From a virus, in IMG/VR virus record IMGVR_UViG_3300005254_000003, positions 86 to 64,085 of that record: a stretch of 64,000 nucleotides of DNA; one strand, 5' to 3'. A model generated the notes under the pieces. It ran no database searches. It saw only the letters and a list, made by a program, of their open reading frames with translations, and was not told the origin of the DNA. This document shows positions 727 through 42,464 of the stretch, one piece after another; within the stretch, counting starts at the first letter, position 1; each line of letters opens with the position of its first letter. The position numbers were made by a program, and so were the translations under genes.

Positions 727-729
727 TTG

Positions 730-9943: not shown

Positions 9944-9954
9944 TAAAGAAAGCA

Positions 9955-25843: not shown

Positions 25844-28756
25844 ATGCAGCATTTCATCTACGTCGATTTGGTAAAAGCACATGTCAAAGCTCATTTCCGT
25901 CGTGATCCGAAAACCGGCAAACTGCTGTTCATCAAGGATTACGATTCCAAAGTTCATGGCAAGGCAGATCTTGAGTTTCACCAGGGCCATCAGGTTAGGG
26001 TGAACAACCCCCGGAGCAAATTCCACGGCCAGGTGATGACTGTCCGCCATTACTCCGACAAGTACAATGTCGTGCGTTTAAATATCCCCGGGAAAAACCA
26101 TACCGCCGATTTTGAGCCCCATCAGTTGGAGCATCATACGCCGGTAGCCGGCAGCGCCTCGCCGGCGACACCTCCGCCGGCTAAAGCCATGACGTTGGAT
26201 GATGCCAAGACTGCGTTGGGGTTGGCTGGGATCTCTTTTGCTTCTGCGGAAATGGCCCACGAAAGAAAGCGGGTCGAATCGATGGATGCAGCCAAGCTCA
26301 AGGCCAGGATCTCCAAGATCAAAGAGAGCCAGAAGCTCTACAATTTCATGCGGGCGTTGATGGAGTGGGGTACCGCCGATAAGCGGGAAGTCGCCAAAGA
26401 CATCGAAAAGGAATTGATCAAGCGAGCGGAGGATAAGAAGGCTGCTGCGCCGGCAGCTAAACCGGTAACCAAGCCGCCAGCCACCCCGCCGGCGGTTGCA
26501 AAAATCACTTTCGATCCTGGGGATAGGGTCCGAATCAGTAATCCCCGCAGCAAGCATCACGACAAGGAGGGTGTGGTCACCTCCTTTTCCGACAAGTACA
26601 ACGTGGTCCGATTGAAACTCGATGACGGTTCCTACACGGATGTGAGCCCGGCTTCTGCAGTTAACCTGTCGGGGAACAACCAGTCAGCTCCGGCGGCACA
26701 ACCAGCTCCTGAACCGGAAAAAACTCCCGAACCTCCGAAGGCTCCCGAACCTCCGAAGACTGCGGCGGATTTTCCGCATGACAAAGCGGCTGCCTGGAAA
26801 TACGCCAGCAACGATCAACGGTCCTTGGCCCGGGTCACGGGGATGGTCCCGCTGGACGACAAAGCGGCCGAATACATCAAGAAAAATCTTCAGAAAATCA
26901 CTGCGAAGGCTGGGACGACGAATGTACCTTCCTCCGGTTACAGAGCGAGCAATGACAGGTGGTATGGGGTCAAGACCCGAGGTGGGTACACCATCCCGAA
27001 ATATGTGAATGAGTATTTGAATTCGGATTGGCGTACCACAGGCGATATCATGACCGCTTTCCGTCTTGATGTTAAAGGCGACAAGCCTATTTCCGATACG
27101 GCGATTGGTTTCATCCAACGCGGAAAAGAGGACTGGGAAAAGGCTGGCTACGATTATGTTAAAATCGAGGAAGATCTCAAGGAACTCGGCAAGCTCATCG
27201 AGGAAGCGGTTTCGAAAGAAACAGCCAAACAGCAACATTCATTGCTTGCGGTAGATTTTATGCTTGAGAATCTCGCCCATTCTTTGCGGATAAAAAATAC
27301 TGGGCCTGATTCGCATCAGGTCAAGCCGTCTGAGTTCATGAAAACAATGATGGAAAAATTTACTCCGGATATGAAAGTCTCCGAGTTCTTGGACCACTAT
27401 ACCAAGTTGAATGCTGATGATCTGCTTGATCTAAAATCGGTCAAGGAGCTTTTTCACGCTTATGCCGGCCCCGGTTTTCAAGGCAATCCGGAACATCTCA
27501 CCATGAGGGATGTAACCGATGGCTTGACTCGTTTTATGGGGAGAGCGCGCAAGATCGCTTGGACTGGGAGCCCTGCTGATGATATTGAAATGCGGGGTTT
27601 TCTCAATGTGATGAAAGAACGTAGCAGTGCAGTTCGATATCTGCATGAAAAATTTGGTGTCGAACTGGCGACTATTATCAAAGATAGGGGCTTTTCCGGG
27701 GATAACGATTCAATGACTTCCTTTATTGCATCCGGCGGTGTTGGAGCCCCACCTTTTGCCAGATGGTCCAATTTCCGGGTTATAGAGCCGGGAATGGTTA
27801 CTTACCCTCAGAAAAAAATATCAGACGAAATTCTCAAGAGAATCAAAAACAGCGACATCTTGCGAGATCAGTGGGCGGCGAATTATGTCACTGTCGTGGG
27901 ACAGGCTAACTTGACGAAAAATTATAACCGGCCGTTTAAAAGCCGGGTTTTTCCGAGAGGTTTGATTCAAGATCAAGGCCCGCGAGCGGTTGGGATGAAA
28001 ATTGCCCGACAAAGCGGCAAAGTGGATGACATCGCCGATAGTATGTCCAAGCGGTATTGGAAAGAGGTCGAGAAACAGAAAAAGCTCAAGGCATCGGGGC
28101 AAAAAGGAGCCGACCCGGCGGATCGAAGTGACCCACCGCCGGATTACTTGGGCTGTACGTTCAAATCCGTGGATGACAAGACGGCCAATTTTCTCCGAAA
28201 AAAGATTGAAAAGGCCTGGGATAAAGATGTGCATGGCGGGTTCTTTTTCAAAATCCATGGGATCTATCAAATCGGCGGCATGGATCATCACGGTAAATAC
28301 AAAAAGATTGAGAAAGATCGTGACAACGTCATGTATGGCTACCACTCGACCAATTTCCAAGCAGCCGCATCGATTGTGAAGTCGTCTTATCGGGCTGGCG
28401 GCGGGATGCTCGGCGACGGGGTTTATGTTACGGATGTGAGTTCCAAAAGCGCACAATATCTTTTGGGCAACTGCAACGTAACCCGGCGTCCGGGGACTCG
28501 GGGCGTCTTTCTGATGAACAAGGTTTCTTTGGGCAAAGTCCATGACAAGAGCTATGGGGCTCCGAATTCCAATCCCCACGAAACTCCCAGTCTCGACAAA
28601 GCGGATACGGTTTTTGCTCCCAAAAACAAGATGGTTCCGGGTTATTCGACAAAGGTGTTGAACGATGAACATGCGGTCAAGGATGCCAATGCCGTCATTC
28701 CGATGTATTGGGTGGATTTGGAATTAACGGATCGTTCCGGCAAAACTAACCCGTAA
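25844..28756 (+). CDS. Multidomain virion-cargo-like protein: targeting motif + 2 KOW/SH3-like domains + C-terminal PARP-like ADP-ribosyltransferase
   Basis: YGYHST / MLGDGVYVTDVSSKSAQY / KVSLGKV / NDEHAV align to the PARP H-Y-E catalytic motifs; GAGGGA RBS before ATG 25844. Confidence 0.85.
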   Translation: MQHFIYVDLVKAHVKAHFRRDPKTGKLLFIKDYDSKVHGKADLEFHQGHQVRVNNPRSKFHGQVMTVRHYSDKYNVVRLNIPGKNHTADFEPHQLEHHTPVAGSASPATPPPAKAMTLDDAKTALGLAGISFASAEMAHERKRVESMDAAKLKARISKIKESQKLYNFMRALMEWGTADKREVAKDIEKELIKRAEDKKAAAPAAKPVTKPPATPPAVAKITFDPGDRVRISNPRSKHHDKEGVVTSFSDKYNVVRLKLDDGSYTDVSPASAVNLSGNNQSAPAAQPAPEPEKTPEPPKAPEPPKTAADFPHDKAAAWKYASNDQRSLARVTGMVPLDDKAAEYIKKNLQKITAKAGTTNVPSSGYRASNDRWYGVKTRGGYTIPKYVNEYLNSDWRTTGDIMTAFRLDVKGDKPISDTAIGFIQRGKEDWEKAGYDYVKIEEDLKELGKLIEEAVSKETAKQQHSLLAVDFMLENLAHSLRIKNTGPDSHQVKPSEFMKTMMEKFTPDMKVSEFLDHYTKLNADDLLDLKSVKELFHAYAGPGFQGNPEHLTMRDVTDGLTRFMGRARKIAWTGSPADDIEMRGFLNVMKERSSAVRYLHEKFGVELATIIKDRGFSGDNDSMTSFIASGGVGAPPFARWSNFRVIEPGMVTYPQKKISDEILKRIKNSDILRDQWAANYVTVVGQANLTKNYNRPFKSRVFPRGLIQDQGPRAVGMKIARQSGKVDDIADSMSKRYWKEVEKQKKLKASGQKGADPADRSDPPPDYLGCTFKSVDDKTANFLRKKIEKAWDKDVHGGFFFKIHGIYQIGGMDHHGKYKKIEKDRDNVMYGYHSTNFQAAASIVKSSYRAGGGMLGDGVYVTDVSSKSAQYLLGNCNVTRRPGTRGVFLMNKVSLGKVHDKSYGAPNSNPHETPSLDKADTVFAPKNKMVPGYSTKVLNDEHAVKDANAVIPMYWVDLELTDRSGKTNP

Positions 28757-28769
28757 AAGAGGCTGAAAA

Positions 28770-29066
28770 ATGATGCTCGTTAATCATTCGAATTATTTCG
28801 ATTACAATGGCCAGATTTACTGTGAAAAACTCATGGATGTGGTCCGGGCCGATGAGCAGCATTACGAGAACTATTGCCTGAATTGCCGTTTTTTCAATGG
28901 GCACCTGTTCGGCGAGGGGGTGGAGTGTCTTTACGAGGACTCCACGGTCAAGGACGGTGAGGAAGTGATCGGTGTAACCGATCCTTTCGAGTACCTGGAT
29001 AAGCGTCGCAAAGCACGTTCTATTGAAAGAGAACGCAAGGCAACCGATTTCACCGTAAAGCGGTAG
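28770..29066 (+). CDS. Small Cys-containing hypothetical protein
   Basis: C...CLNC...C; directly downstream of the ART gene. Confidence 0.55.
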   Translation: MMLVNHSNYFDYNGQIYCEKLMDVVRADEQHYENYCLNCRFFNGHLFGEGVECLYEDSTVKDGEEVIGVTDPFEYLDKRRKARSIERERKATDFTVKR

Positions 29067-29075
29067 CGAGGGGCC

Positions 29076-29771
29076 ATGTCGCACGTCAAGCAATACACCC
29101 GGGTCAGCCACGGCAAAATGCAGACCGTTCGCGCCTATGATGATAAGCGTTCGCGGTCTGGAAAAAAGGTTTCACACCATGTCGTGACGATTGACAAGGG
29201 GATGGAAAAGATCAGGGAAACGGTTACGGAGCTGCTGCGGACGGATGCGGGCGTCAAGGAGCTGGAGGCCAAGGTCAAGTCCGGCGGCTTTTTAAAGTCT
29301 TTGCCCGAGGTGGCGGCGTTGTATGGGGTCGAACAAGGCGTCCACCATCCCTATCGGGATACCTTCGATCATACGATCCAGGTCATAAAACACTTGCCAG
29401 CGGATGCCAGCGATAACGTCCGCTGGGCGGCGTTGCTGCATGATATCGGCAAATCAACGACCCAACAGGTACATCCGGATCGGGGCATCGTGTTCGATGG
29501 CCATGAATACGCTGGCTACAAGATGGTGGGCAAGGTTCTCGATCGCCTGGGGTTCTCCAAGGATGATCAGGCAGAGATCAAGCATCTGGTCCTTCATCAT
29601 GGCAACCTGCGGACCAAATTCCTTCGATCGGACGAAAGCGAGGCTCGGGAATTTATGGCCCACAAGCATTTTGAGACTTTGCTGGCGTTGCATCGAGCGG
29701 ATGTGAAAGCGTCCGGCCGGGATCCGAAAGAGGTGCTCGATGCCATCGATGAATTAAGGCAAAAAGATTAG
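29076..29771 (+). CDS. HD-domain phosphohydrolase (CCA-enzyme-type HD) with N-terminal HVK targeting motif
   Basis: HH...DTFDHT...WAALLHDIGK...GHEYAG...HH; N-terminus SHVKQYTRVSHGKMQTVRAYDD. Confidence 0.85.
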   Translation: MSHVKQYTRVSHGKMQTVRAYDDKRSRSGKKVSHHVVTIDKGMEKIRETVTELLRTDAGVKELEAKVKSGGFLKSLPEVAALYGVEQGVHHPYRDTFDHTIQVIKHLPADASDNVRWAALLHDIGKSTTQQVHPDRGIVFDGHEYAGYKMVGKVLDRLGFSKDDQAEIKHLVLHHGNLRTKFLRSDESEAREFMAHKHFETLLALHRADVKASGRDPKEVLDAIDELRQKD

Positions 29772-29789
29772 TTTTATCCATAAATACAA

Positions 29790-29801
29790 GTAAGTAATTA
29801 C
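29790..29801. promoter_or_regulatory. Palindrome 5
   Basis: GTAAGTAATTAC. Confidence 0.8.
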
Positions 29802-29822
29802 ATATATTGGAGGCCCGGCTAT

Positions 29823-31982
29823 ATGTTGATCGATCTGAAAAACATCAAGGTTGTACCCTTGGCTGAATTTGATTTGGAAAAAGCGGCCTTCAAGCACGGG
29901 TACTACACCCATCTGGTGCCAAAAAAAGTCGTTGGCAAGGATGGAGTTGAGCGGATCCACTGGGTCAATCCGGACAAGGACAAAAAGACCAAGCTGGCCC
30001 GAGTGTCTCATCATCGGGAGGGTAATGAAGCCGAACACCATGCCGAGATCAGTCAGAAGCATATAATTGATCCGAAGGATTTGCAGAGGTTTTCCGAGGG
30101 CGACAAGGTGGTTGTATCCTGGGGCGCTCATAAGGGCCGTGAAGGGGTTTTCCGCGGGGATTTGGCCGGTCCTTCGCCGAGGGTGTCGGTTGCGCTTTTC
30201 AATGCGAAAACCGGCAAGCATGAAGCCAAGACGATGAACATCAATTACATCAAGTTGGTTCACCGGGCGGATGAAGAAACCAAAAAGGTAATCGAGCGCA
30301 AGACCGTCGAGGCGACCAATCTGAAAGGGGAAACGATTCTGGTCGATCGTGGGGATTTTGAAAAATACTACAAGGACCGGGACAAGAAAAAGACGATTCA
30401 AGAGCGGGTGGCCGAGGAAGCCAAGCGCCTGGTAGTCGGCGGCGTGTACCGGCGGCCGGATGGTCGGATGATCGGGGTTGAATCGTCGCTGAAGGTCGGG
30501 TCTTCGACGCAATATTCTATCAGGGTGGTTGACCGAAGAAAAAAAGCGGACAAGGTGGGAAAGGTCGACGAAGACCGGCTGCAGGGAATCTTGGACAAGC
30601 AGAAATATGAGCGGGTGCCCCGGCCGACGATCACCAAAGAGGCGAAAACTTTTGATGAAGACGACGGCACCTGGAAAAAATGGGTAACGGACAAGCCGCT
30701 CAGTGCAGATCTGGAAAGCGGCGAGCTGCATCGTAAAGGGCATTTCGGTTACGATGCAAAAACGGGGATGCGGGTTCCTACAGAAGCCGATGAGGACATT
30801 GCCCGTAAAATCCTTGCCGAGCATTGGTCGATGCTGGAACGCACGGTAAACAACCGCGTAGCGAAATATCCCACGGTGCCGGAGGGTGAAATCAGCCCAG
30901 CCGACATCATCGATGGTTTGACCAAGGCGGTGGCCAGTTACGAACCGTTGCTCGATACCGGGGGCGGGATTGAGGGGCGCCTCCGGAAGTATGCCGACTC
31001 CTACGCCCGGAGTGAGGCTGAAAAGATCCATGAGCGGGAAACGGCGACGGTGCGGGATGACTTGGTCAAGGAGGATGGGGATACCACCGATGCTCCGATC
31101 ACGTCGGCTGTCGATAAGGCGGCTGTCAAAGAGATGATCGGGGATCTCAACGAGATCATGGCTTCTGCCTTTGTTTCCAAACAAGATGCGATGATCTTGG
31201 AGGAAGGCCTTGCCGATGAGGCAGACATGATGAGTTGGCTCTACGGGGATGAAAAGATCCTCGATGTCATGAAGCGGTGGACCGGCATCGGTGAGTTTGA
31301 ATCGACCATCACCAAAAAGGAAGCTGCAGCCGAACTGACCGGTTTGGCTTACAACCCGGCGACGATGGAGCCTTACGCGACTTCGACGATCGAAACGCTG
31401 CTGCTTCCTCGGGAGCTTAACCGAATTATTGAGGCTTTCCAGAATGAGGGGATGCTCTATCCCGAGTTCATGGCGACGCTGAAAAAAGATGTCAACCTTC
31501 GGAATAAGTTGGCCCGGAATCGAAAAATCCTTCCTGTCCATCCGAAGGATGAGAAGGTCATCGCCGTTGTCCGCGAAAAGGTCAAAGAGTCCAAGGGTCG
31601 GGCGATCTATGCGGCCCAATTGATTCGCCGCGGGGTACCGCCGCGGTATGCGCCGGCGGTGATGCAGCTTGGTGATCGGATCATGGCCGGCCGAAGTGCT
31701 CCGTATGATTACGCCAAGCAGCTTCCCCGTGAGGTGTGGAAAGACGGGGCGAAGGCACTGACGCAGTGGTTCAAAGATCAATTGCCTACATCGGTGTTTG
31801 CTGGCAAACGAGCTGCAGCATTCAATTTGCCCCAGCGGTTCGATGTTGAGGGTCCGATAAACAGGGCAATCGCTGATGAAAAGCGGCTGAAGGAAGAAAA
31901 CGAGCAGGCGGCCAGCCGCGAATATTCCAAGATGGGGAAAGAGCCCCCGGCGCCTCCAAAGCCCACTAAGGTAATTATCTAA
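29823..31982 (+). CDS. Large head-region protein with KOW motif and sigma70 region 2/4-like segments
   Basis: GLTKAVASYEP (r2-like); ILDVMKRWTGIG...TKKEAAAEL (r4-like); FSEGDKVVVSWGAHKGREG (KOW). Confidence 0.6.
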   Translation: MLIDLKNIKVVPLAEFDLEKAAFKHGYYTHLVPKKVVGKDGVERIHWVNPDKDKKTKLARVSHHREGNEAEHHAEISQKHIIDPKDLQRFSEGDKVVVSWGAHKGREGVFRGDLAGPSPRVSVALFNAKTGKHEAKTMNINYIKLVHRADEETKKVIERKTVEATNLKGETILVDRGDFEKYYKDRDKKKTIQERVAEEAKRLVVGGVYRRPDGRMIGVESSLKVGSSTQYSIRVVDRRKKADKVGKVDEDRLQGILDKQKYERVPRPTITKEAKTFDEDDGTWKKWVTDKPLSADLESGELHRKGHFGYDAKTGMRVPTEADEDIARKILAEHWSMLERTVNNRVAKYPTVPEGEISPADIIDGLTKAVASYEPLLDTGGGIEGRLRKYADSYARSEAEKIHERETATVRDDLVKEDGDTTDAPITSAVDKAAVKEMIGDLNEIMASAFVSKQDAMILEEGLADEADMMSWLYGDEKILDVMKRWTGIGEFESTITKKEAAAELTGLAYNPATMEPYATSTIETLLLPRELNRIIEAFQNEGMLYPEFMATLKKDVNLRNKLARNRKILPVHPKDEKVIAVVREKVKESKGRAIYAAQLIRRGVPPRYAPAVMQLGDRIMAGRSAPYDYAKQLPREVWKDGAKALTQWFKDQLPTSVFAGKRAAAFNLPQRFDVEGPINRAIADEKRLKEENEQAASREYSKMGKEPPAPPKPTKVII

Positions 31983-31987
31983 GGGGC

Positions 31988-32016
31988 TTGACGGTTGTTG
32001 AAATTCGGAATACAAA
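31988..32016 (+). promoter_or_regulatory. sigma70-type promoter
   Basis: TTGACG-N17-TACAAA. Confidence 0.45.
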
Positions 32017-32067
32017 TAAAGTATCGATCGAAACCGAATCGAATCATATCATATCAAAGGTGACTCT

Positions 32068-32565
32068 ATGGATTTAAACAAGATGCGGGATGATGTTCTG
32101 GAAAGCCTTCGGATCAAGTACAAGGAATCTCCGGAACTTTTGAGTGACGGTGCTAAGGCGATCATGGCTATTCTTTCAACGACCAAATACATGGATTTGT
32201 ACGACGCCAAGGGGGACATGTTCGCGGACATGTTCCGCCGGGTCGAATTGGCTGAACAATTACTGGTTGAATACGAAAACAAAACCTACAAGGGGCCGGG
32301 GGATGTCAGTAATATGATTTGCCAGCTCATCCCGATCGAGATGGTGGAAACAGCCGAACATTATACCCACTTAAACGATCTTGTGTACCGGATGCAAAAG
32401 GTTTTGGATCGTAACATCTGCCTGGGTATTCGGGAATATGAGAAAGCGAACAATTTGTCTCCGTTGGATCTGAGCCATCCACTTGATCATCTTGCCGAGG
32501 ATCTTGCTCTTGCTGGGTATAAAGATACTGATGAAGACCTGCTTGCTGATGACGGTGAGGGGTAG
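32068..32565 (+). CDS. Hypothetical protein
   Basis: 165-aa ORF, AAGGTG RBS. Confidence 0.6.
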   Translation: MDLNKMRDDVLESLRIKYKESPELLSDGAKAIMAILSTTKYMDLYDAKGDMFADMFRRVELAEQLLVEYENKTYKGPGDVSNMICQLIPIEMVETAEHYTHLNDLVYRMQKVLDRNICLGIREYEKANNLSPLDLSHPLDHLAEDLALAGYKDTDEDLLADDGEG

Positions 32566-32566
32566 C

Positions 32567-32779
32567 ATGCCGATCGTGGAATTAGAACACAACCTTCAGG
32601 ATTTTGAACTCGAGGAAACCCTCGAAAAAGCACTTGGTACCATCCGTCAAAAGATCCAGCGGCCGGCTCGTAAATTCAGGCAACCGGCCCTGGAGGAACT
32701 GGCCCGGACGGTGACTGGTCAATTTGATGGTCAGATGAAAAAGATGACCAAGCGGATCGAGGGCGTCATCCAGGGATAA
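32567..32779 (+). CDS. Small head-region protein with LEKA motif
   Basis: GAGGGG RBS; MPIVELEHNLQDFELEETLEKALG... Confidence 0.55.
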   Translation: MPIVELEHNLQDFELEETLEKALGTIRQKIQRPARKFRQPALEELARTVTGQFDGQMKKMTKRIEGVIQG

Positions 32780-32800
32780 TTTTTTTGGCCTCGTGTCGAA

Positions 32801-32812
32801 GTAATTAATTAG
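32801..32812. promoter_or_regulatory. Palindrome 6
   Basis: GTAATTAATTAG. Confidence 0.7.
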
Positions 32813-32821
32813 GTTGACCAT

Positions 32822-33070
32822 ATGAGCGAAGCGGAAAAAGAGTTCACCTTCGGGGCAGAAACGGTCAGAGCGATATTTGAGGAAATCCGGGAGAACCACC
32901 GCCGGCTGGATCGTTGCCCCGGGCCTCATGATTTTGGGGTGACCGACCAAAGCGGTTTCAATTTCCGTCAGAAATGCACCTGCAGCAAATGTGGGGGTGT
33001 TCTCGATGGAGTGGCCCTGCGTTGGTATTTGAAGGGTTTGGAACACGGGAAAAAGCTGCATGCTGAATAA
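32822..33070 (+). CDS. Small Zn-binding phage protein
   Basis: CPGPHDF...CSKCGG. Confidence 0.6.
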   Translation: MSEAEKEFTFGAETVRAIFEEIRENHRRLDRCPGPHDFGVTDQSGFNFRQKCTCSKCGGVLDGVALRWYLKGLEHGKKLHAE

Positions 33071-33899
33071 AGACCAAGTTGCCGAAATTGCCCGGATCAT
33101 CCGCGAACATGTGGGTGTCGCTATTTATTATCTGACCGGGTCACCGCCGGCGGGGATCAATGTCGATAAGCTGCGGGCGGCTGGAATTATTGGTCCGGAT
33201 GTTCCCGACAGTGTCATCGCCGATGCCTACCTGTACGGGGTGCTGTCTTCGCTCGACCCGAAGGTAGCTTCGGCACCGTTTTCGGTGATCAAAGAAACCC
33301 TTCGGAACCTGCCGCTCAGTCCGATCGAAAAAGCAACGGTTGAATGGCTCAACACCTCGGCTGCGCTTTATTGCCAGGGCTTGGGGAACCGGATTGAGAC
33401 AGCGACGATGCGGATCATCCACGATGCTGCCAAAGAGGCAGTCATGCGGGACACGATCCAAACCACGATGTCGGCGGCAACCCGGCATCGTAAAACCCGG
33501 GGTGAGATGGTCACCTTGCTTCGACGGGCGACAGAGGATGTTCAGCGGGATTGGCATCGGATCGTCAACACCGAGTTGCATAGCGCCAGGACACATGGCG
33601 TGGCCCATGGGATAACAAAGCAGTTCGGGCCTGATGCCTATGTCGTCGTCCGGCCCCATCCTGATTGCTGTGACCTGTGCCGGGAGGCTTTTCTTTCCCG
33701 GGGAGTGCCCCGGGTGTTCAAGTTGGCGGACCTGGCTGCGCGGAGCAATATCGATCGCACGGCGGCTGAGATCCGGCGGGCGCCCGGGATGCCGCCGGTT
33801 CATCCTCATTGCTTGTGTGAGATGTCGTACTTCAATCCGAAGCTTCACGAATTCGACAAAGAAGGGCGGGTCGTTTTCAAACAGTTCAAGGGGGATTAA
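33060..33899 (+). CDS. Minor head protein (MuF/gp7-like)
   Basis: RDWHRIVNTELH...CCDLC...PPVHPHCLC. Confidence 0.8.
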   Translation: MLNKDQVAEIARIIREHVGVAIYYLTGSPPAGINVDKLRAAGIIGPDVPDSVIADAYLYGVLSSLDPKVASAPFSVIKETLRNLPLSPIEKATVEWLNTSAALYCQGLGNRIETATMRIIHDAAKEAVMRDTIQTTMSAATRHRKTRGEMVTLLRRATEDVQRDWHRIVNTELHSARTHGVAHGITKQFGPDAYVVVRPHPDCCDLCREAFLSRGVPRVFKLADLAARSNIDRTAAEIRRAPGMPPVHPHCLCEMSYFNPKLHEFDKEGRVVFKQFKGD

Positions 33900-34282: not shown

Positions 34283-34503
34283 CGAAAGGCTTGGTCGCAT
34301 GCGGTACTTGCGGCAGTGAAATGATCCGGGAATATCCTGACGGAAAGAAAAAACTCCGGACCAGCATACTTGTTTGGGAGGGGGATCGCTGCATCGGAAA
34401 ATGCCGAAAATGCGGGGCTGACGTGGTTTTGCCGGTGCAGTTGGCTATGCCGGTTTCTGCTACTCCGAAAAAAAAGTTGGTTCATATCGTTTATCCCCGT
34501 TGA
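34279..34503 (+). CDS. Zn-ribbon protein
   Basis: CGTC...CRKC. Confidence 0.6.
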   Translation: MTKGLVACGTCGSEMIREYPDGKKKLRTSILVWEGDRCIGKCRKCGADVVLPVQLAMPVSATPKKKLVHIVYPR

Positions 34504-34545
34504 CAGGTATTTTTGATTCTGGCTATAATATAAGTATCTAATTAC
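34500..34545 (+). promoter_or_regulatory. Consensus sigma70 promoter plus palindrome 7
   Basis: TTGACA-N18-TATAAT (34500-34529); GTATCTAATTAC at 34534-34545, then a GTAATTAG half site. Confidence 0.75.
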
Positions 34546-34671
34546 TGTAATTAGTTCGGTTTGTGGCTAAATCTAAGGGGGCAGGAATGATTTTCTAAGC
34601 GGTCGGGGTATGTTGGGTTAGCTCGTTTCATTTTCGGTTGCTGTCGGTGGGCAGCGTTAAGCTCCAATTTT

Positions 34672-34720
34672 GAGGGAGTATTCGGCAGGAAAATTGCGCC
34701 GTTTACTCCCTCTTTTTATT
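34672..34720 (+). terminator. Intrinsic terminator in the leader of the protease/capsid operon
   Basis: GAGGGAGTA / TACTCCCTC 9-bp stem plus T tract, 13 nt before the start codon. Confidence 0.6.
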
Positions 34721-34732
34721 TGAAGGTCTGAC

Positions 34733-35635
34733 ATGATGGAAAACCAAACGCCAATTGGGTTCCACGAGGACGGGTCATTCCGGTTCCATGTTCCCATCGA
34801 TCTGAAAAAAGGGGACGATGGCAAGACATGGATTGAAGGGGTCGCCAGCGTTGAAAGAGAAGACATCGCCGGCGAAACGGTTATCTTGGCCGGGATGGAT
34901 CTGTCCTATCTTTTGAGCCGCGGCTATTTCAACGACAATCATGCCAAGACCACCGATGCAAAGGTCGGCGTCCCCACCGAAGCGAAAGTTACGCCCAATG
35001 GGTTGCAGGTCAAAGGGTATCTGTTCGACACACCCCGGGCCAAAGGCATTGTTGAGTTGGCCGAGGCCCTGCAGAAATCCGGCAGCGAGCGCCGCCTGGG
35101 TTTCAGTGTTGAAGGAAAGACCCTCAAGCGTGACGGCAAGATCATCAAACAGTGTTGGGTCAAGGATATTGCCATCACCGCCGAGCCGGTCAACCCCTAC
35201 ACCTACCTCGATGTCATCAAAAGCATTTCCCATGATATCGCCGTCAATGGTTATGTCGATGATCTGGAGGAAAAGGCCCAGGCCCCGAATATAGTAGAGC
35301 CTGAGCCGTTGGGCTACTGGGACCGCCTGGAACAGATTTTTTCCAGGTGCTTGTCAAAGATCTTTGGGGGCAAAGCTCAATCCGATTTGGAAAAGATGAT
35401 GATGGCCGGAACCCAGCGGCCCGTCGAGGATGGGGGATCAGCCCTTCGGAAAGAGGCAGTCGAGGAAGGGGTGACGAATCTGGACATCCCGCAAGGTGAA
35501 ACGAAAGAGCTAACCGAGGATGAAGCCGTCCAATATCTGATGCGACGTGGTTATTCCGAGGAAAACGCAAAACGGGTCGCAAATATGATTTTCAATACCG
35601 AAAATCGGAAGTTCTTGGCAACTGTCGGCCTATAA
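34733..35635 (+). CDS. Prohead maturation protease
   Basis: IEGVASVEREDIAGE...GYFNDNH...LGFSVEG...IAITAEPVNP. Confidence 0.9.
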   Translation: MMENQTPIGFHEDGSFRFHVPIDLKKGDDGKTWIEGVASVEREDIAGETVILAGMDLSYLLSRGYFNDNHAKTTDAKVGVPTEAKVTPNGLQVKGYLFDTPRAKGIVELAEALQKSGSERRLGFSVEGKTLKRDGKIIKQCWVKDIAITAEPVNPYTYLDVIKSISHDIAVNGYVDDLEEKAQAPNIVEPEPLGYWDRLEQIFSRCLSKIFGGKAQSDLEKMMMAGTQRPVEDGGSALRKEAVEEGVTNLDIPQGETKELTEDEAVQYLMRRGYSEENAKRVANMIFNTENRKFLATVGL

Positions 35636-35652
35636 CACAAGGAGGACAAATC

Positions 35653-36441
35653 ATGACGGAACAAAAAACAACGATGCCGGAAAAAGCTTTCCTGGAATCG
35701 CTTGACGCTCTGGAGAATTTGGCAAAGGGGATGGTCCCTGTTGCGGATGATCTGGATGCGGCTGCCGGTGAGGATCTGGAAAAAAGTCAGTCGGCCGACG
35801 GCCAGGGGGAAGCTGCTGCTGACGAAGCACTGGTCAAGGGGGATGATGGCGAGGACGATGATGACCAGGACAAAGACGAAGGCGATGAAGACACCGAAAA
35901 AGCCTTGTCCGGGGATGCCCTCTCCTTTGCCGAGGAAGCCGCTGCCGGTTCCGAAAATATCCGAAAAGCCATTGAAGTGAGTGACTTCCTGGCGGATCTG
36001 GTGGACCGGGTTGGCGATGCCATCGATGGCATTCGTCAAAACCTCGATACCCGCGTCGAAACCATCGAGAAAAGTCTGTTGACGGTATGTGAGGCCAATC
36101 AGTCCGTCGTCCAGGCTGTGGCCGAAACCCTGCGGAAGTCTTTCCAGGCAGTTTCGGAAAAGACGGACCAGCAAGCTGAAACCCTGCGGAAGTCGCTGGA
36201 TATCCTCAACGATGAGTTGAGCAGGACTCCTGCCCGGGCTCCCAAGGCCAAAGTCTCCGTGCTGGAAAAAGGTTTCAACGACGAAGAAAAGGGGATCGAA
36301 ATGTCGAAAGCCGACATCCTCAAGTCTTTGTCCGACATGTTCGAGCGTGGTGAACCGGGTGTGACTTCGCTGGATGTGATTCGATTCGAGTCCAGCGGCG
36401 TGTTGCCGCCCCACATTCAGAAGAAGTTTCAAGGCCGGTAG
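35653..36441 (+). CDS. Acidic scaffold-like protein
   Basis: Lies between protease and MCP; acidic coiled coil with many xxKS/KA/KG motifs. Confidence 0.7.
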   Translation: MTEQKTTMPEKAFLESLDALENLAKGMVPVADDLDAAAGEDLEKSQSADGQGEAAADEALVKGDDGEDDDDQDKDEGDEDTEKALSGDALSFAEEAAAGSENIRKAIEVSDFLADLVDRVGDAIDGIRQNLDTRVETIEKSLLTVCEANQSVVQAVAETLRKSFQAVSEKTDQQAETLRKSLDILNDELSRTPARAPKAKVSVLEKGFNDEEKGIEMSKADILKSLSDMFERGEPGVTSLDVIRFESSGVLPPHIQKKFQGR

Positions 36442-36461
36442 TTTTTTCATCTTAAGTCGAA

Positions 36462-36473
36462 GTAATCAATTAC
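36462..36473. promoter_or_regulatory. Palindrome 8 (before MCP)
   Basis: GTAATCAATTAC. Confidence 0.8.
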
Positions 36474-36498
36474 TTCTAATCTGTAGGAGGAAATTCAA

Positions 36499-37932
36499 AT
36501 GAACGATATCATCACACTGGCTCAATACGAAGATATTCACACCGCCGGTTTCACCAGCATGCGCGAAGTTGAGGAACTCAACAAAGCCCTGGAAGCCGGC
36601 CATGACCGTCCGGTGTCCACCGGCGGCGGCGCTTTGCGCGTGGAGTCCCTGGAAGCCAGCCTCAAAGTGCTGACCCATCAGGCCAAACACTGTGCTTTCT
36701 GGCAGCGCGTTCCCAAACTACCCGCTTACTCGACCGTCGAGGAATACAATCAGTTGACGGCTGTTGGCGATGAGTCCGGAGCCTTCATTCCTGAAGGTAC
36801 GCTGCCCGATACGGTGGATTCCACCTACAACCGCGCAACCAGCCTGGTGAAGTTCCTGGGTACGACCCGCAGCGTTTCTCACCCCATGACCCTGGTCCGC
36901 ACCAACATCGGTGATGTGATGGCCCAGGAAAATGCCAACGGCATCCTGTGGATTCTCAAAAACCTGGAATGGGGCCTATTCAACGGCGACGCCGACATGT
37001 GTTACCTGGGTGCGGCTACCGATTCGACCCACCGTGAAGGTGTGGAGTTCAGCGGTCTGGAAAAACAGATCAACGCCGCCAACGTGGTCGATCTGAAGGG
37101 CGCTCCTCTGAGTGAGGGTGCGTTCTCCTATGCGGCTCAGTTGGTCGCCAGCAATTACGGTGTTCCGTCGGATTGTTTCTTGAGCTTCGCCGCTCATCAG
37201 GCATTCTGCGACACCATGCTGCCCAAAGAGCGCGTACCGCTGCCCACCCAAGGCGGTGGCTATACCGTCGGTGCCAATATCCCCGATGTGAACACCCCCT
37301 TCGGCAAGGTCAACCTCAACCCCGATGTGTTCCTGAACTCGGGCAAAACTCCTCCGTCCGCTGCGACCAGCACCAATGCTCCGACGGCTCCTGCGACCTT
37401 TGCCGCCGCAGCTATGGCTGGCACCGATGGTGTGTGGGCGACCCATGGTGGCGCCGGCACCTACAATTACGCCGTGACCGCCGTGAACCGCTACGGTGAG
37501 TCGGCTGCCGTGAATGCTGCTGCTGCCGTGACCGTGGCTGCTGCCGATCTCGGAAAGCACGTTCCCTTCACCATCACCAACGCCGCCGCCGTGTCCGTGG
37601 CGCCCGAGTATTTCAACATCTACAAGACCCTGCCGGGTGGCACCACGAAATACCTGGTCGGCCGTATCCGTGCCAACAGCGTGGCCAACGCCGGAACGAC
37701 CACCTGGGACGATACCGGCCTGTGGATGGCTGGCACGACCAAGGCTTTTGTGGGTGAGCTGAGCCCGCAAGTCATCTCCGTCAAACAGCTTGCTCCGCTG
37801 ATGAAAATGGATCTGGCGACCTTGGCTCCGGCCTACCGTTGGATGATCCTCTGCTACCTGACCTTCATCCTGTACGCCCCCAAGAAATGGGTGCAGTTCA
37901 TCAATGTCGGTGGCAGCCAACTGGCGGTGTAA
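36499..37932 (+). CDS. Major capsid protein (A511/Twort-like)
   Basis: LNKALEAG...GGALRVESLE, STVEEYNQ, ILWILKNLEWGLFNGD, LAPLMKMDLA; strong RBS AGGAGG. Confidence 0.92.
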   Translation: MNDIITLAQYEDIHTAGFTSMREVEELNKALEAGHDRPVSTGGGALRVESLEASLKVLTHQAKHCAFWQRVPKLPAYSTVEEYNQLTAVGDESGAFIPEGTLPDTVDSTYNRATSLVKFLGTTRSVSHPMTLVRTNIGDVMAQENANGILWILKNLEWGLFNGDADMCYLGAATDSTHREGVEFSGLEKQINAANVVDLKGAPLSEGAFSYAAQLVASNYGVPSDCFLSFAAHQAFCDTMLPKERVPLPTQGGGYTVGANIPDVNTPFGKVNLNPDVFLNSGKTPPSAATSTNAPTAPATFAAAAMAGTDGVWATHGGAGTYNYAVTAVNRYGESAAVNAAAAVTVAAADLGKHVPFTITNAAAVSVAPEYFNIYKTLPGGTTKYLVGRIRANSVANAGTTTWDDTGLWMAGTTKAFVGELSPQVISVKQLAPLMKMDLATLAPAYRWMILCYLTFILYAPKKWVQFINVGGSQLAV

Positions 37933-37974
37933 TTCGGTAATTCCCCTGAGACTTTAAGGGGGTTCGTAACCCGT

Positions 37975-38012
37975 GAAAACCCAGGGGTCGACTCCGACGC
38001 CTGGGTTTTTTC
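37975..38012 (+). terminator. Terminator after MCP
   Basis: AAAACCCAGG / CCTGGGTTTT stem plus T tract. Confidence 0.7.
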
Positions 38013-38042
38013 ATAAACGCTTTTTCCAATGGAGGTTATCCC

Positions 38043-38198
38043 ATGGCAACAATTTCGAATCTGACCGACACCCAAAAACGGATGCTTGAGGATTACGACC
38101 CGGCGATCAAAGAGGCGGGGCTGGCCGATCTGCTCGATGATTTGATCGACAGCAACAACGATCTCGAGGCCCGGGTGGCTGTTCTTGAAACTCCCTAA
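38043..38198 (+). CDS. Small acidic protein (51 aa), not in the ORF track
   Basis: GGAGG RBS; MATISNLTDTQKRMLEDYDP... Confidence 0.6.
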   Translation: MATISNLTDTQKRMLEDYDPAIKEAGLADLLDDLIDSNNDLEARVAVLETP

Positions 38199-38278
38199 TG
38201 CCGTCTGAGCTAATTCTTCCGGGGCGGTGAAATGCCGCCCCTTATTTGAACTGATCAAGCAACTGAAAGGATCTTCTC

Positions 38279-38656
38279 ATGCCGAAAATTCATACGTCTG
38301 TGTTGGGTGGGCAAAAACTTCTGGTCGGCAATGAAATCGTGGAATTCGACGCCGACGGTTTCGCCGATGTCACCGACGATATTGCGGCTACCGTTCTTCC
38401 GTTGAAAGGCTTTTCCAAAGTCAAAGAGGCTCAAGACGATGGAGGGGTGGTGTCGGATGATACCGGCGGTGCATCGGATGAAAAAACGGATGATGGTGCG
38501 AATGCTGCCGGTCCATTGAATGAAGCCGGCGCAGCCAAGGAAGAAAACACCCAGGACACAGCAGGGGCCACCGGGCGTGTTCCAGCCATCGACGATGAGG
38601 CGATCAAGAAAACCCGGGGGCGTAAACCGAAAAAGGACGCCGAAACCAATGAATAA
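38279..38656 (+). CDS. Hypothetical head-associated protein
   Basis: Short beta domain plus acidic low-complexity tail. Confidence 0.55.
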   Translation: MPKIHTSVLGGQKLLVGNEIVEFDADGFADVTDDIAATVLPLKGFSKVKEAQDDGGVVSDDTGGASDEKTDDGANAAGPLNEAGAAKEENTQDTAGATGRVPAIDDEAIKKTRGRKPKKDAETNE

Positions 38657-39059
38657 CCTTGATGAAGCATTGGTGAGATTGAACGAGCTGGAACCCGGCC
38701 TGCGTTCTTTAGATACCCTTTTTGCCCTTGGCGAAGTGATCAAGGGCGAAAAGGGGCACCACAATGCGGGGGATTTTGATCTTACCGTGTGGGAGCACAG
38801 CATGGACGGGTTCTCTGTTGGGGCTATCGTCAGGGCCAGAATGGACGGGAAGCCATTTCCGAGTCTGAATCAGTCTCAAAAAAAATGGATTCTATGCTGC
38901 AAGGGACGAATGAAAATTGTCTATGGCGAGAACATTAAGACCATGGGCGAGGGGGAGCGGCTGACGATCCCGTCCAAGACGCCCCATGAGATCTATCCGA
39001 TAACCGAGGATTGCTCGGCGATCATCGTTACGGTGCCTGCCGATCCCGGGATGAGATAA
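38649..39059 (+). CDS. Cupin-domain protein
   Basis: GEGERLTIPSKTPHEI; WEHS. Confidence 0.7.
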   Translation: MNNLDEALVRLNELEPGLRSLDTLFALGEVIKGEKGHHNAGDFDLTVWEHSMDGFSVGAIVRARMDGKPFPSLNQSQKKWILCCKGRMKIVYGENIKTMGEGERLTIPSKTPHEIYPITEDCSAIIVTVPADPGMR

Positions 39060-39467
39060 ATGTCTATGACTGACCAAAGATCCGTTGATTCATGGACTTC
39101 CTTTGCTGAATGGCGAGGTACTGTCAAAACAGCCCTTGATTTCATCAAAAGCAGCCTAAAACGGCTTGAGGCAGAAGACCAGGAACAATGGGAAACCATT
39201 GAGCAAGTCCGGGGGATGCTGGAAAAGGCCCGGGATCGGTGTGACCAACTAAGCCAGGGCCGGGCCACGAAAGCTGATGTTGATGCTTTGCGTGGCGAGT
39301 TGGATAAAAAAGCCAGCGCCAAGGATTTTGACGAGCTGAAAACGGAGGTCAACGCTCAAAGCAAGGTCCAAATCAAGCAGGGCGTGACCTTGCTTTTTTA
39401 TGGGACCATCGGCGGAGCCTTGTTCACGATCCTCCTTAATATGGCCACTCACTTTTTTAAAAAGTAG
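39060..39467 (+). CDS. Coiled-coil protein with C-terminal TM (holin/XhlA-like)
   Basis: TLLFYGTIGGALFTILLNM near the C-terminus. Confidence 0.55.
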   Translation: MSMTDQRSVDSWTSFAEWRGTVKTALDFIKSSLKRLEAEDQEQWETIEQVRGMLEKARDRCDQLSQGRATKADVDALRGELDKKASAKDFDELKTEVNAQSKVQIKQGVTLLFYGTIGGALFTILLNMATHFFKK

Positions 39468-39474
39468 GTATGCG

Positions 39475-40212
39475 ATGAAACTGCCGACACCTGAACTGAT
39501 CACCGGAAATTATCTGTTCGGAATCCCTTTGGTCGATGAAGACGGAAACGAGTTGGGGGAGCCGACTATCGAATACTGGATCGGCCAGGGGATCTCCTGG
39601 CTTGAAACAGAATTAATGATCCCGATCCAGCCGACCTCGATCCAAGAAACGCATGACTACTACATCGATGAGTATCAGCAATTTTGCTACCTTCAGCTTT
39701 ATCAATATCCCGTGATCTCTGTCGAGTCGCTGGTGGCAAGCTACGCTGGCCAGGAAATCATGACGTTTCCTGCCGATTGGATCCGGATTTACAAACAGAC
39801 CGGTCAGCTCCAGCTTGTGCCGACCACCGGCAGCTTGTCGCAAGTCCTCCTGGGGGCCGGGTCGGGTGTCTTGCTGCCGCTGATCACCGCCCGGTTATCG
39901 AATATGCCGCATTTGTTCAATGTGACCTACACGGCGGGTTTCGCCGAGGGACAGGTGCCCGGGGATATCGTTGACATGATCGCCATGAAGGCGTGCATCG
40001 GGTTGTTGAACATCCTGGGCGATATTTTGTTGGGTGCCGGTATCGCTTCCCAAAGTCTCAGCATCGATGGGTTGAGCGAAAGCATCAATACGACCCAGTC
40101 TGCGGAAAACTCCGCTTACAGCGCCCGCATCCGTCAGTATGAACGTCAAATCAAAGCCCAGTTGCCGAATCTGCGGGCACGATACAAAGGGCTCAGATTG
40201 GCGGTGGCATAA
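39475..40212 (+). CDS. Head-tail adaptor (neck 1)
   Basis: YLFGIPL, YTAGF...VPGDIVDMI, SLSIDGLSES. Confidence 0.8.
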   Translation: MKLPTPELITGNYLFGIPLVDEDGNELGEPTIEYWIGQGISWLETELMIPIQPTSIQETHDYYIDEYQQFCYLQLYQYPVISVESLVASYAGQEIMTFPADWIRIYKQTGQLQLVPTTGSLSQVLLGAGSGVLLPLITARLSNMPHLFNVTYTAGFAEGQVPGDIVDMIAMKACIGLLNILGDILLGAGIASQSLSIDGLSESINTTQSAENSAYSARIRQYERQIKAQLPNLRARYKGLRLAVA

Positions 40213-40871
40213 TGGCAGGCCGTGTTGATTTCAAAGTCGGATCCTTCGATGCCCTGGTCGATAAGCACGGGTACTACCTGGAGCATTATCAGGCCTTGCA
40301 ATGTCCTTGCTACGACCTGCAAACCGGCCATCCCGACCCGACTTGCTTATATTGTGAGCATGGCTGGCAGTACTATGGCCGGCAGGAAATCCAAGGGATC
40401 ATCACAGGCCTCCAGACGGACAAACAGTTCATCGAGCCGGGTGGATTGTTGCTTGGCACGATGCAGCTCACGGTCAAGGCCGAGGTGGATCTCGGGTATC
40501 ATGATCGCATCGTCAACCGGAAGTCGTTGATTGCGTTTTCCGAATTGCTCATCCGCGGGACCGGGGAAACAGACCGGGCCCGGTTTGAGATGGTGGATAT
40601 TCTTCGGGTGGTCGGCCCCGGCGGGGTGGTGTATGTGCCGATCCTTGATTACGAAGTTTCCGGCGGGCTGATCCGGTGGACGGGAACCGGGCAAGCGCCG
40701 GCAGCCGGCAGCCGTTATTCGGTTGCGTACCGGATGCACCCGACATGGCTTGTGTTGAGCCATGTTCATGTCGTTCGCGACACTCATATCAAATTCCGGC
40801 AGGTTGAGCCAATGCACCACCGGCTGCCGATTCAGGCAATCTGCAAACTTGAATATCTTTGGGAGGGGTAA
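40212..40871 (+). CDS. Head closure/neck 2 protein
   Basis: CPC...PTCLYC...LGYHDRI; follows the adaptor. Confidence 0.75.
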   Translation: MAGRVDFKVGSFDALVDKHGYYLEHYQALQCPCYDLQTGHPDPTCLYCEHGWQYYGRQEIQGIITGLQTDKQFIEPGGLLLGTMQLTVKAEVDLGYHDRIVNRKSLIAFSELLIRGTGETDRARFEMVDILRVVGPGGVVYVPILDYEVSGGLIRWTGTGQAPAAGSRYSVAYRMHPTWLVLSHVHVVRDTHIKFRQVEPMHHRLPIQAICKLEYLWEG

Positions 40872-40874
40872 ACC

Positions 40875-42464
40875 ATGGGTCTTTTTGATGAAGCATTGGC
40901 GAAAAGCCTTGAAACAGGGGATACAAAAGATCTTGCCCAGGTGGTGTTTCCCGGGGCCGAAAGTTTGGAAAAGGCCCATATCAAAGCCCATTTCCGGTTG
41001 AATCCCAAAACCGGGAAACGAGAATTCATCAAAGACTACGATGATGCCCGGCACAAAGATGAAGTACATGTCTCGTTTCACAAAGGGCACAAGGTCAAAG
41101 TGAACAATCCGAAATCCAAGCACCATGGCAAGGTGATGGAGGTGACTGGTTACTCGGAAAAATACGATGTCGTGCGGGGTAAAATTGATGGCGAGAAAAA
41201 CTCTGTCGATTTTCATGCAGACCACTTGGAGCATCATGGCGACAAGGCTGCTGCCCCTGATGCAAAAGAGGACAAAGAGCCGACCGGGAAAATCTCCGCC
41301 GAGCTGAAAGCGAAAATCGATAGCCTTTCTCCGACTGAAAAATTCACTGTCGTCAATGATTACTTGGGCCTTCGGGTTCATGCGGGTGATAAAAATTTCC
41401 GCGCCGACAAAGATGGTGGGACCGATCGGTTCCTGGCCCATGTCAATGTCAGAGATTTTCCAATCAAAAAGATCGAAGAAGCGGTCGATCGTATGTTGGA
41501 CCAAAAAGATCGGGGAAAAGTTGAACCACCGAAGCGGGATTATTCCAAAGGGGTTACGGTTGTCGTTACCAAGGTGGAGAGACTGCCTGGTGGCCAAGGC
41601 GACCGTGTTGCTTTCAGCTATGACGATGGCACTCCAGTAGAAGATAAAATCATGGCGGGTTGGTCCCACCGACATGGGCCCAGCAGCAGTGATCCCAATC
41701 CGGCTGCTATCAGGACCATGAGCACCTACAAGGTAGGGGAAAAATACAAGCTCACCCGCGACAATCGTGGAATGTGGGCCGAACCCCATCACACGAACAA
41801 GGTGGCCGAGGGTAAAGCCCCGACAGATACAGGGCCCAAGAAAGACCTTGATGTTAAAACTACTCCCGAAAAATTGAAATATGACAAATTCGGTGCCCAT
41901 GTGAAATCGGGCGTGAGCAGCGTTTCGGATGCCGAAAAGATTCTGATGGAGCACGGTTTCACCTGGGACAAGAGCGACAAGTCTGGATCGCTTGGAGGCG
42001 CCATCTATGAAAAAGACGGCAAGGGGGTTGCCCACTTCGATGCAGCGGGCAAAACCTTGACGATCTATGAGCCCAAGGAAAAATCGGATTCCAAGCCTGA
42101 CCAATCAAAGGCAACAGGTGCCCAAAAACAATGGGGGACGGAAAAGGAAATTGCGGCGCCGGATGCTGGCATCGGTCCAAAGAGTTTCGAGACGCGGTTT
42201 CCCCACATCAAAGAGTTTTTTGAACAGGCTGAGAATACCCTTGAACTCGGGAAGTTGAAAAAACAGGCCGCCAAATTCGCCGCGAGTAACCCCGAGGGGT
42301 GGAAGTGGGGGCCGATTGACCACTTTCACAAGGAACACGCTGAGACTTTGAGGCAGCTTGGTCGATCCGGTCACAAACAAACGGCCGCAGCAGAACACCG
42401 GATGGATACTTTACTTCGAACCCGGGATTCATCCGGGCGGGCAACGGCGAGAAGGCGTTCATAA
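40875..42464 (+). CDS. Virion-cargo-like protein with the same N-terminal module as the ART protein
   Basis: LEKAHIKAHFRLNPKTGKREFIKDYDD + HKVKVNNPKSKHHG...YSEKYDVVR. Confidence 0.8.
   Translation: MGLFDEALAKSLETGDTKDLAQVVFPGAESLEKAHIKAHFRLNPKTGKREFIKDYDDARHKDEVHVSFHKGHKVKVNNPKSKHHGKVMEVTGYSEKYDVVRGKIDGEKNSVDFHADHLEHHGDKAAAPDAKEDKEPTGKISAELKAKIDSLSPTEKFTVVNDYLGLRVHAGDKNFRADKDGGTDRFLAHVNVRDFPIKKIEEAVDRMLDQKDRGKVEPPKRDYSKGVTVVVTKVERLPGGQGDRVAFSYDDGTPVEDKIMAGWSHRHGPSSSDPNPAAIRTMSTYKVGEKYKLTRDNRGMWAEPHHTNKVAEGKAPTDTGPKKDLDVKTTPEKLKYDKFGAHVKSGVSSVSDAEKILMEHGFTWDKSDKSGSLGGAIYEKDGKGVAHFDAAGKTLTIYEPKEKSDSKPDQSKATGAQKQWGTEKEIAAPDAGIGPKSFETRFPHIKEFFEQAENTLELGKLKKQAAKFAASNPEGWKWGPIDHFHKEHAETLRQLGRSGHKQTAAAEHRMDTLLRTRDSSGRATARRRS

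Follow-up and report, generated by a model that had tools for sequence, protein, structure and literature searches.

A predicted basic β-hairpin on unrelated effector proteins of phages with SPO1/SU10-type capsids, and a putative prohead-protease site in front of it

Three genes with a common N-terminal hairpin

We analysed a 64-kb stretch of DNA (the window) from a 66-kb IMG/VR viral contig, IMGVR_UViG_3300005254_000003, judged to be ∼41% complete, in which the products of three genes have a predicted basic β-hairpin of ∼33 residues in common: an ADP-ribosyltransferase (ART, P0001), an HD phosphohydrolase (P0002) and a 529-residue protein of the neck operon (P0003). The window holds a myovirus structural block that spans 16.3–59 kb on one strand, the + strand, to which all window coordinates below refer unless stated otherwise. 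Its genes run in the order portal, fibre-like gene, InPase, ART, a 98-residue Cys-rich protein, HD, a 719-residue protein, prohead protease, scaffold and major capsid protein (MCP), followed downstream by adaptor-like genes, P0003, a terminator-like protein, the sheath (44050–46008) and the baseplate. In tblastn searches the MCP is 46–47% identical to MCPs of SPO1-group Bacillus phages, and it matches SPO1 Gp6.1 (PDB 9vel) with an E-value of 5e-112.

The hairpin follows the consensus phi-x-K-[A/S]-H-[V/I]-K-x-[H/Y]-x-R-x2-3-K-[T/S]-G-x4-[V/I]-x-[D/E]-[Y/H]-[D/E]-D-x-R-x-K (phi, hydrophobic). An earlier annotation made from the letters of this DNA (the sequence-only reading) had seen a common N-terminal motif on these three genes, and BLASTP, a hairpin hidden Markov model (HMM) and a regular expression all find it on them. 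The hairpin-only HMM was built from 70 copies collected by regular expression, none of them from HD proteins, and was used to scan the six frames of the window and of 14 loci. It gives exactly three matches in the window, in the open frames at 25820 (ART, i-Evalue 2e-17), 29067 (HD, 3e-6) and 40872 (P0003, 1e-19). The pattern H[VIL][KR].[HYF].[RK] returns these three real open reading frames (ORFs) and one match in a 191-residue + strand frame at 11055 that we do not take as a gene. The collecting expression demanded a phi-x-K-[A/S/G] prefix and permitted K or R at the Lys position; on that basis, phi-x-K-[A/S/G] stands immediately before the hairpin in 70/70 collected copies, and the Lys is invariant. 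AlphaFold2 (AF2) models the 36-residue element as a clean two-strand hairpin with a mean predicted local confidence (pLDDT) of 71, and the hairpin begins one residue past the invariant Lys.

The ART gene (25844–28756), whose ATG at 25844 stands behind a GAGGGA ribosome-binding site, encodes a leader, the hairpin, an SH3-like domain, a linker domain, a second SH3-like domain, a long middle region and a PARP-type ART domain. The 11-residue leader MQHFIYVDLVK (25844–25876) ends in phi-x-K, with a predicted K↓A cut at 25876/25877 (the arrow marks a putative cut throughout), and is followed by the hairpin, LVK↓AHVKAHFRRDPKTGKLLFIKDYD... (25868–25966), which is identified by the HMM, the 70-copy alignment and the AF2 model. 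The catalytic domain (28223–28579) matches PF00644 with an E-value of 1.7e-9 and 37.9 bits, against a gathering cut-off of 26.7. Orthologs of this protein are ∼900–1100 residues long.

The sequence-only reading had also proposed that a KOW/SH3-like domain follows the hairpin in two of the three proteins and recurs inside the ART protein, and both parts of that proposal hold. Residues 17–106 of the ART protein are 57% identical to residues 31–121 of P0003 (E = 4e-32), and its residues 229–280 are 38% identical to residues 66–136 of P0003 (E = 2e-12). The first barrel of the ART protein (25973–26137; phrog_22429) is assigned by homology, AF2 and Foldseek, while the internal repeat (26504–26659) is assigned by its likeness to the P0003 barrel. 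The AF2 model of P0003 gives an SH3-like barrel with a pLDDT of ∼78, for which the best Foldseek matches are NdhS, PsaE and KOW, with a target-normalised template-modelling score of up to 0.77 (NdhS); the top matches also include KOW domains from NusG and Spt5, and all E-values lie above 1e-3. The Pfam KOW model matches 6/59 relatives and no window protein, the sole window match being NdhS at an E-value of 0.022, below the cut-off.

P0003 (40875–42464) combines a conserved N-terminal module of ∼125 residues with a hypervariable C-terminus (41238–42461). Its helical leader MGLFDEALAKSLETGD...SLEK (40875–40973) holds two phi-x-K-[AS] sites, LAK↓S and LEK↓A, and runs into the hairpin LEK↓AHIKAHFRLNPKTGKREFIKDYDD (40962–41063) and then into the barrel (41070–41237); AF2 models residues 1–130 as two helices followed by the hairpin and the SH3-like barrel. 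Homologs, which occupy a slot between DUF4815-like and terminator-like genes, have the first ∼125 residues in common and wholly different C-termini that include DUF3626, DUF7717 and extra SH3 repeats. In one relative, P0012, a P0003-type start is joined to the linker domain of the ART protein, indicating that modules are exchanged between tagged genes. The C-terminus of the window protein matches no known family, and the payloads behind the hairpin therefore differ as the sequence-only reading had it: a PARP-type ART, an HD domain and a region without a family. We also considered the P0003 leader as a mimic of the scaffold N-terminus and dropped the idea, since BLASTP gives no alignment.

The HD gene (29076–29771; PF01966, HD domain 29367–29612) carries the hairpin at its extreme N-terminus, (M)SHVKQYTRVSHGKMQTVRAYDDKR (29079–29156). 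BLASTP similarity of this N-terminus to the tag is weak (E = 1e-4), and the HMM match is to a copy outside the model. Among 26 close orthologs, which are 50–96% identical, 23 have the hairpin, and in 22 it starts from residue 2, the protein opening with M-[S/A]-H-[V/I]-K; the other three orthologs have a start downstream of the place of the hairpin and may be truncated. The hairpin is found in 0/93 distant HD homologs among the matches listed, most of which are annotated as poly(A) polymerase or HDIG. The same HD protein is also present on a 149-kb contig. With Ser or Ala at position 2, the initiator Met is probably removed, which would give the HD proteins the N-terminus [S/A]-H-V-K, the same end as ART and P0003 would have after the predicted cut.

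Between the ART and HD genes lies a 98-residue Cys-rich ORF (28770–29066), directly 3′ of ART and in the HD frame, with pairs of the C-x2-C type and a stop codon (29064–29066) three codons ahead of the HD ATG. It has no Pfam or PHROG match, and a 102-residue counterpart is present at the same place in a related contig, G002. In the producing cell, the protein could inhibit the ART or act as its chaperone.

The hairpin in other phages

A profile run against 1.84 billion representative proteins returned 79 clusters, several of which are true polyvalent proteins where the hairpin alone is repeated between domains. In P0064, for example, the order is hairpin, InPase, hairpin, hairpin, ART-PolyVal, hairpin, hairpin and an SAM-lyase-like domain. 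A listing of payload diversity by HMM, which the sequence-only reading had suggested as a check, turned up many unrelated effector domains: across 59 hairpin proteins Pfam finds PARP (9), KOW (6), InPase (5), SNF2/DEAD (4), DUF7717 (4), ART-PolyVal (3) and SAM lyase (3), together with ddrB-ParB, RadC, DRAT and DUF3626, and further hairpin loci in IMG/VR add PBECR3, LPD1 and ParB. The densest contig, L020, has 20 hairpin copies in eight consecutive genes after the portal, and its tagged genes include a Zeta-like kinase, a 1775-residue SNF2 helicase, two ART-PolyVal proteins and an InPase/SAM-lyase protein. Five of its proteins start with M-x-L-L-K-[A/S]-H-[V/I]-K or a close variant, behind leaders of 4–5 residues. 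Across the other loci, 31/44 copies are internal and 13/44 N-terminal, and a single polypeptide has up to five copies. Leaders upstream of the hairpin vary from 0 to 33 residues.

The genomic setting recurs as well. Hairpin genes lie upstream of SPO1/SU10-type capsid genes, and in four further viral genomes every hairpin is on the MCP strand, 7–19 kb upstream of the MCP gene. Five IMG/VR genomes were retrieved solely by a DNA pattern of the hairpin, and an MCP of this type, 29–36% identical, is encoded in all five. Two contigs, G001 and G002, have the window layout with ART, Cys-rich protein, HD and 719-residue protein in the same order, and this conserved order makes ART and HD core genes of the clade. 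Within the clade, swapped C-termini are confined to the hypervariable tagged gene of the neck operon (P0003 type).

As far as our searches went, the element has not been described before. In the window proteins and relatives scanned, the hairpin lies outside every Pfam and PHROG model, the hairpin profile has no match among PDB sequences and the tag profile has chance-level matches only, a word-based search with the 40-residue hairpin region returned only the query itself, and the literature searched holds no description of such an element. In cultured phages, tblastn with P0062, a protein with five hairpins, matches through its DUF6496 domain only. From the sequences in hand, we regard the hairpin as a portable element that heads or separates the modules of polyvalent-type proteins.

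Three proteins picked up by the profile, P0065, P0083 and P0084, were rejected as family members. They are secreted proteins of propeller-like repeats with the unit GALFRVNPTTGNRTVVSDFGD, which resembles FRxxPxTGxR, and the likeness of their blade hairpin to the F-R-x-x-P-x-T-G core of the tag is one of chance or convergence.

Some further observations concern the relatives. On L020, positions 1464–2672 encode a 402-residue protein after the portal that looks of the MuF type by eye (Cys-x2-Cys and His-Pro-Trp-Cys-x-Cys near the C-terminus) and has no Pfam or PHROG match; its phi-x-K-[ASG] sites number 7, with 1.9 expected, and two (ELVK↓A and TLEK↓A) lie in the first 40 residues. Close relatives of the SPO1-like structural module lie within two long contigs, L006 (a 2.6-Mb ENA/NCBI contig) and L007 (484 kb), in one of which an IS66 element follows the tail-tube gene, and two hairpin-bearing 90-kb genomes, G004 and G005, are classed as proviruses by IMG/VR. 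Since cultured SPO1-like phages are known as strictly lytic, integrated or carried relatives would be unusual.

A putative prohead-protease site before the hairpin

The invariant Lys before the hairpin belongs to a motif that recurs throughout the structural block. InPase, ART, the 719-residue protein, the MCP and P0003 have L[EVN]KA among their first 35 residues, and the broader [LMF]xK[ASG] is present within the first 35 residues of the portal (16476–18203), the prohead protease (34733–35635; phrog_1028, E = 5e-47; DLKK↓G at residues 24–27) and the scaffold (35653–36441). The scaffold has 7 such sites against 0.72 expected from its composition (p ∼ 1e-5 versus other proteins). In the MCP (36499–37932), the predicted maturation cut is K29↓A30 in LNK↓A (36577–36588), and this site aligns with VVK↓S (K24↓S25) of the phi812-type MCP, which is represented in the PDB by a 463-residue chain (5lii) and by a 439-residue chain (9row) that starts exactly at S25. 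Because the literature searched on Herelleviridae yielded no direct statement of the cleavage site, we took it from these chain lengths. SPO1 Gp6.1 has LNKALEAGH, identical to the window MCP. Phi-x-K-[AS] is kept at the maturation column in every aligned MCP, including those of L036, L037, L039 and L040 at 29–36% identity, and in the four alignable MCPs of the pattern-found genomes the surroundings of this column vary while phi-x-K-[A/S] stays. Homology and enrichment together point to phi-x-K↓[A/S] as the type of maturation site used here.

In ART and P0003 a site of the form x-x-K↓[S/A] immediately precedes the hairpin, and in the ART leader the putative cut is placed by homology to the MCP maturation site. 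Since the tagged proteins carry the motif of the MCP maturation site, they are probably inside the prohead. The tagged proteins are also basic, with isoelectric points of 8.5–9.6, and the scaffold is very acidic and rich in Asp and Glu, which makes an electrostatic hand-over from scaffold to DNA plausible.

The motif also occurs near N-termini that have no detectable hairpin. InPase (25239–25823; PF18823, a polyvalent-protein domain, E = 5e-42) has the leader MLIIDLEK↓A, with the site at 25254–25265, and the 719-residue protein (29823–31982) has DLEK↓A at 29874–29885. We rejected the latter as a fourth tagged protein, because hhalign gives an E-value of 0.035 over 23 columns and the hairpin HMM gives no match. 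It nevertheless has look-alike stretches, FKHGYY...GKDGVxRIHWVNPD after the LEKA and GDKVVV...KGREG, and in the protein and its orthologs LEKA-x-FKH-x-YY...GKDGVxRIHWVNP is strictly conserved and followed by a KOW-like GDKV...KG, a tag-like layout. This stretch could be a very diverged hairpin copy.

A proposed role: the hairpin as an element kept after cutting

With moderate confidence, we favour a reading in which head-internal cargo still has the hairpin, at its mature N-terminus, once it has been cut, and the hairpin is not a removable address of the T4 kind. The window hairpin would, with the same degree of confidence, be the local form of a portable basic β-hairpin that marks effector modules in phages with SPO1/SU10-type capsids. 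Tagged proteins would be built into the prohead together with the scaffold, where the prohead protease would cut after the invariant Lys of phi-x-K↓[A/S], as on the MCP and repeatedly on the scaffold. The cut would give each protein or polyprotein module a new N-terminus that begins with the hairpin, and the HD proteins would reach the same [S/A]-H-V-K end by the mere loss of the initiator Met. The retained basic hairpin, reinforced in the window clade by the SH3/KOW-like barrel, would keep the module in the head, initially next to the acidic scaffold and afterwards next to DNA, and/or guide it out at ejection, so that the PARP-type ART, HD, InPase and other enzymes could act in the next host. 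We infer cleavage, head location, the role in retention or ejection and delivery alike from these patterns.

The sequence-only reading had proposed a modular address tag that loads effectors into the head, and a good part of it stands: the element is portable, it sits on unrelated effector domains within the head-morphogenesis block of the window and its relatives, and the MCP-site motif on the tagged proteins makes a place inside the prohead probable. The narrower form, in which the hairpin, with or without the SH3-like barrel, is itself the loading address and binds scaffold, MCP or portal in the manner of the T4 capsid-targeting sequence (CTS) or the P1 DarB N-terminus, seems to us unlikely. 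In its favour, the hairpin stands at the N-terminus of all three window proteins, as it does in the minority of copies elsewhere, it is conserved even on leaderless HD orthologs, the tagged genes lie within the head module, a basic tag facing an acidic scaffold is physically plausible, and T4 and P1 offer proven cases of N-terminal targeting peptides (PMC9024508). However, the hairpin stands after the putative cut rather than before it and would be kept, no hairpin accompanies the cut motif in InPase, the 719-residue protein, MCP, portal, protease and scaffold, and most copies elsewhere are internal. An address is needed only once, yet a polypeptide may have several copies, which fits better with a role for each module after cutting.

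Somewhat less probable again is that the hairpin and barrel are part of the effectors and play no role in the particle: after injection they would bind nucleic acid or a host factor and bring the enzymes to incoming DNA, to RNA polymerase or to ribosomes. The SH3/KOW-like fold (with Pfam KOW in some relatives), the very basic composition and the provision of each enzymatic module with its own hairpin copy would all suit such a function, but it does not account for the invariant tetrapeptide of the protease type before the hairpin, for a hairpin that begins exactly at the mature N-terminus or for the strict link to the head module and to one capsid lineage. The interdomain placement in P0064, where hairpins flank InPase, ART-PolyVal and SAM lyase, and the invariant P1 Lys would also be expected of a mere processing linker, a recognition cassette for the protease with no later function. 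We consider this quite improbable, since HD orthologs keep the hairpin at residue 2, where nothing needs to be cut away, L020 proteins keep it after leaders of only 4–5 residues, and the MCP and scaffold sites need no hairpin. Ordinary paralogy, in which an N-terminal domain was duplicated on proteins that have no common destination and are not in the virion, can scarcely be credited: ART and P0003 are clearly paralogous over ∼90–210 residues, but the hairpin recurs on unrelated folds in distant phages and always in the same genomic context.

Several points weigh against retention of the hairpin on cut cargo. The cut at the hairpin prefix is deduced from a tetrapeptide, and the invariant K-[A/S] could be structural instead of a cut site. 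A complex prediction of the prohead protease with residues 9–62 of the ART protein scored 0.00, with a partner pLDDT of 35, which is evidence neither way. InPase and the 719-residue protein have the site without a detectable hairpin, so that the hairpin is not needed for every cargo, and P0003, being encoded in the neck operon, could be structural. These are uncultured phages, and among 50,697 phage records the tag has no tblastn match. The regular expression also found no hairpin on the polyvalent proteins of three cultured phages (POI1126, LE1 and BF1-TP2), showing that the element is not general to polyvalent proteins.

The concept of such signals is known, from targeting peptides beside protease sites in T4 and the first 30 residues of P1 DarB to the protease-processed ejection proteins that giant phages have, and to polyvalent proteins (PMC9024508, PMC5512222, PMC10052503). 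What would be new is a sequence-defined, predicted hairpin of ∼33 residues that follows the cut, is kept, and is reiterated between modules with many effector folds in one capsid and protease lineage.

The T4 prohead protease cuts after Glu, and the T4 CTS is ∼10 residues long and removed on maturation. It resembles the window element as a short N-terminal element on unrelated head-internal proteins (IPI-III, Alt) beside a prohead-protease site, with cargo that includes an injected ADP-ribosyltransferase (PMC9024508). The T4 element, however, is an extreme N-terminal leader that lies before the cut, whereas the window element lies after it, spans ∼33 residues of predicted hairpin that would be kept, is reiterated inside polyproteins and is preceded by phi-x-K↓[AS]. 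In P1, DarB's 30 N-terminal residues form a capsid-localisation signal that is enough to load a reporter into capsids, and the Dar proteins are stated to have no consensus in common (PMC9024508). DarB is likewise a giant antirestriction protein of the polyvalent type with an N-terminal signal; the difference is that here a sequence-recognisable element is common to many cargos and lineages.

Phage-type polyvalent proteins, as treated by Iyer, Burroughs, Anand, de Souza and Aravind (2017), are found in the context of head genes and predicted to be packaged and injected, and where processing is discussed an MPTase domain is proposed for it (PMC5512222). A term search of that paper returned no such hairpin element. 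The vocabulary is the same, with InPase, ART-PolyVal, ddrB-ParB, PBECR3, LPD1, SNF2 helicase and SAM lyase, and effector domains lie among the head genes here too (InPase, ART and HD between portal and protease). Instead of 2–15 fused domains, however, the window has one catalytic domain per gene, the repertoire being split into separate tagged genes and fused only in relatives such as P0064, and we assign processing to the prohead protease. No MuF domain (PF04233), as in toxins of the MuF/SPP1 gp7 type, was matched in P0001, P0002 or P0003, and the PHROG 'minor head protein' matches of the gene next to ART fall on its InPase domain. MCP maturation in Herelleviridae (phi812-type, 5lii/9row; SPO1 Gp6.1, 9vel) has the K↓[S/A] cut column in common with the window, while the same type of site before effector modules is undescribed for those phages as far as the literature was searched.

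The giant phage SPN3US differs from the window phage type in protease specificity and capsid lineage. Abstracts describe the cleavage of its head proteins by the prohead protease gp245, with eight such proteins reported, and the ejection of many packaged proteins into the host; they mention no conserved retained hairpin (PMC10052503, PMC7411985).

How phages choose the proteins that travel in the head into the next host is poorly understood, with few, case-specific signals at hand, such as the T4 CTS and the first 30 residues of P1 DarB. If the favoured reading of a retained hairpin is true, injected arsenals of anti-defence and takeover enzymes could be read from metagenomic sequence, because the element, tied as it is to a protease site, is common to dozens of unrelated effector domains throughout a capsid lineage. 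The PARP-type ART, HD, InPase and the variable neck-operon protein would then be flagged as probable injected proteins, and the element would explain how polyvalent proteins are taken apart and offer a handle for loading foreign proteins into capsids. More tentatively, the hairpin may be a general 'cut-and-keep' handle, with the protease dissecting polyvalent proteins and the free [A/S]-H-V-K hairpin being the signal that keeps each module on the packaged DNA and threads it by way of portal and tail into the next cell; this would amount to a sequence-defined, transferable signal for protein injection in the whole capsid lineage.

Two features of the window lie apart from the tagged genes. Between portal and InPase, an acidic protein of 828 residues (21122–23608; isoelectric point 4.1) is built of many degenerate repeats (...LSDQIDAVD...IKLKTDSLPADPA...), has no family match and may be a head or neck fibre. 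The flanks of the structural block (1–16000 and 59000–64000) have a G+C content of 0.39–0.50, versus 0.51–0.58 within the block, and hold two large minus-strand ORFs, 10221–13043 (940 residues) and 13024–16029 (1001 residues).

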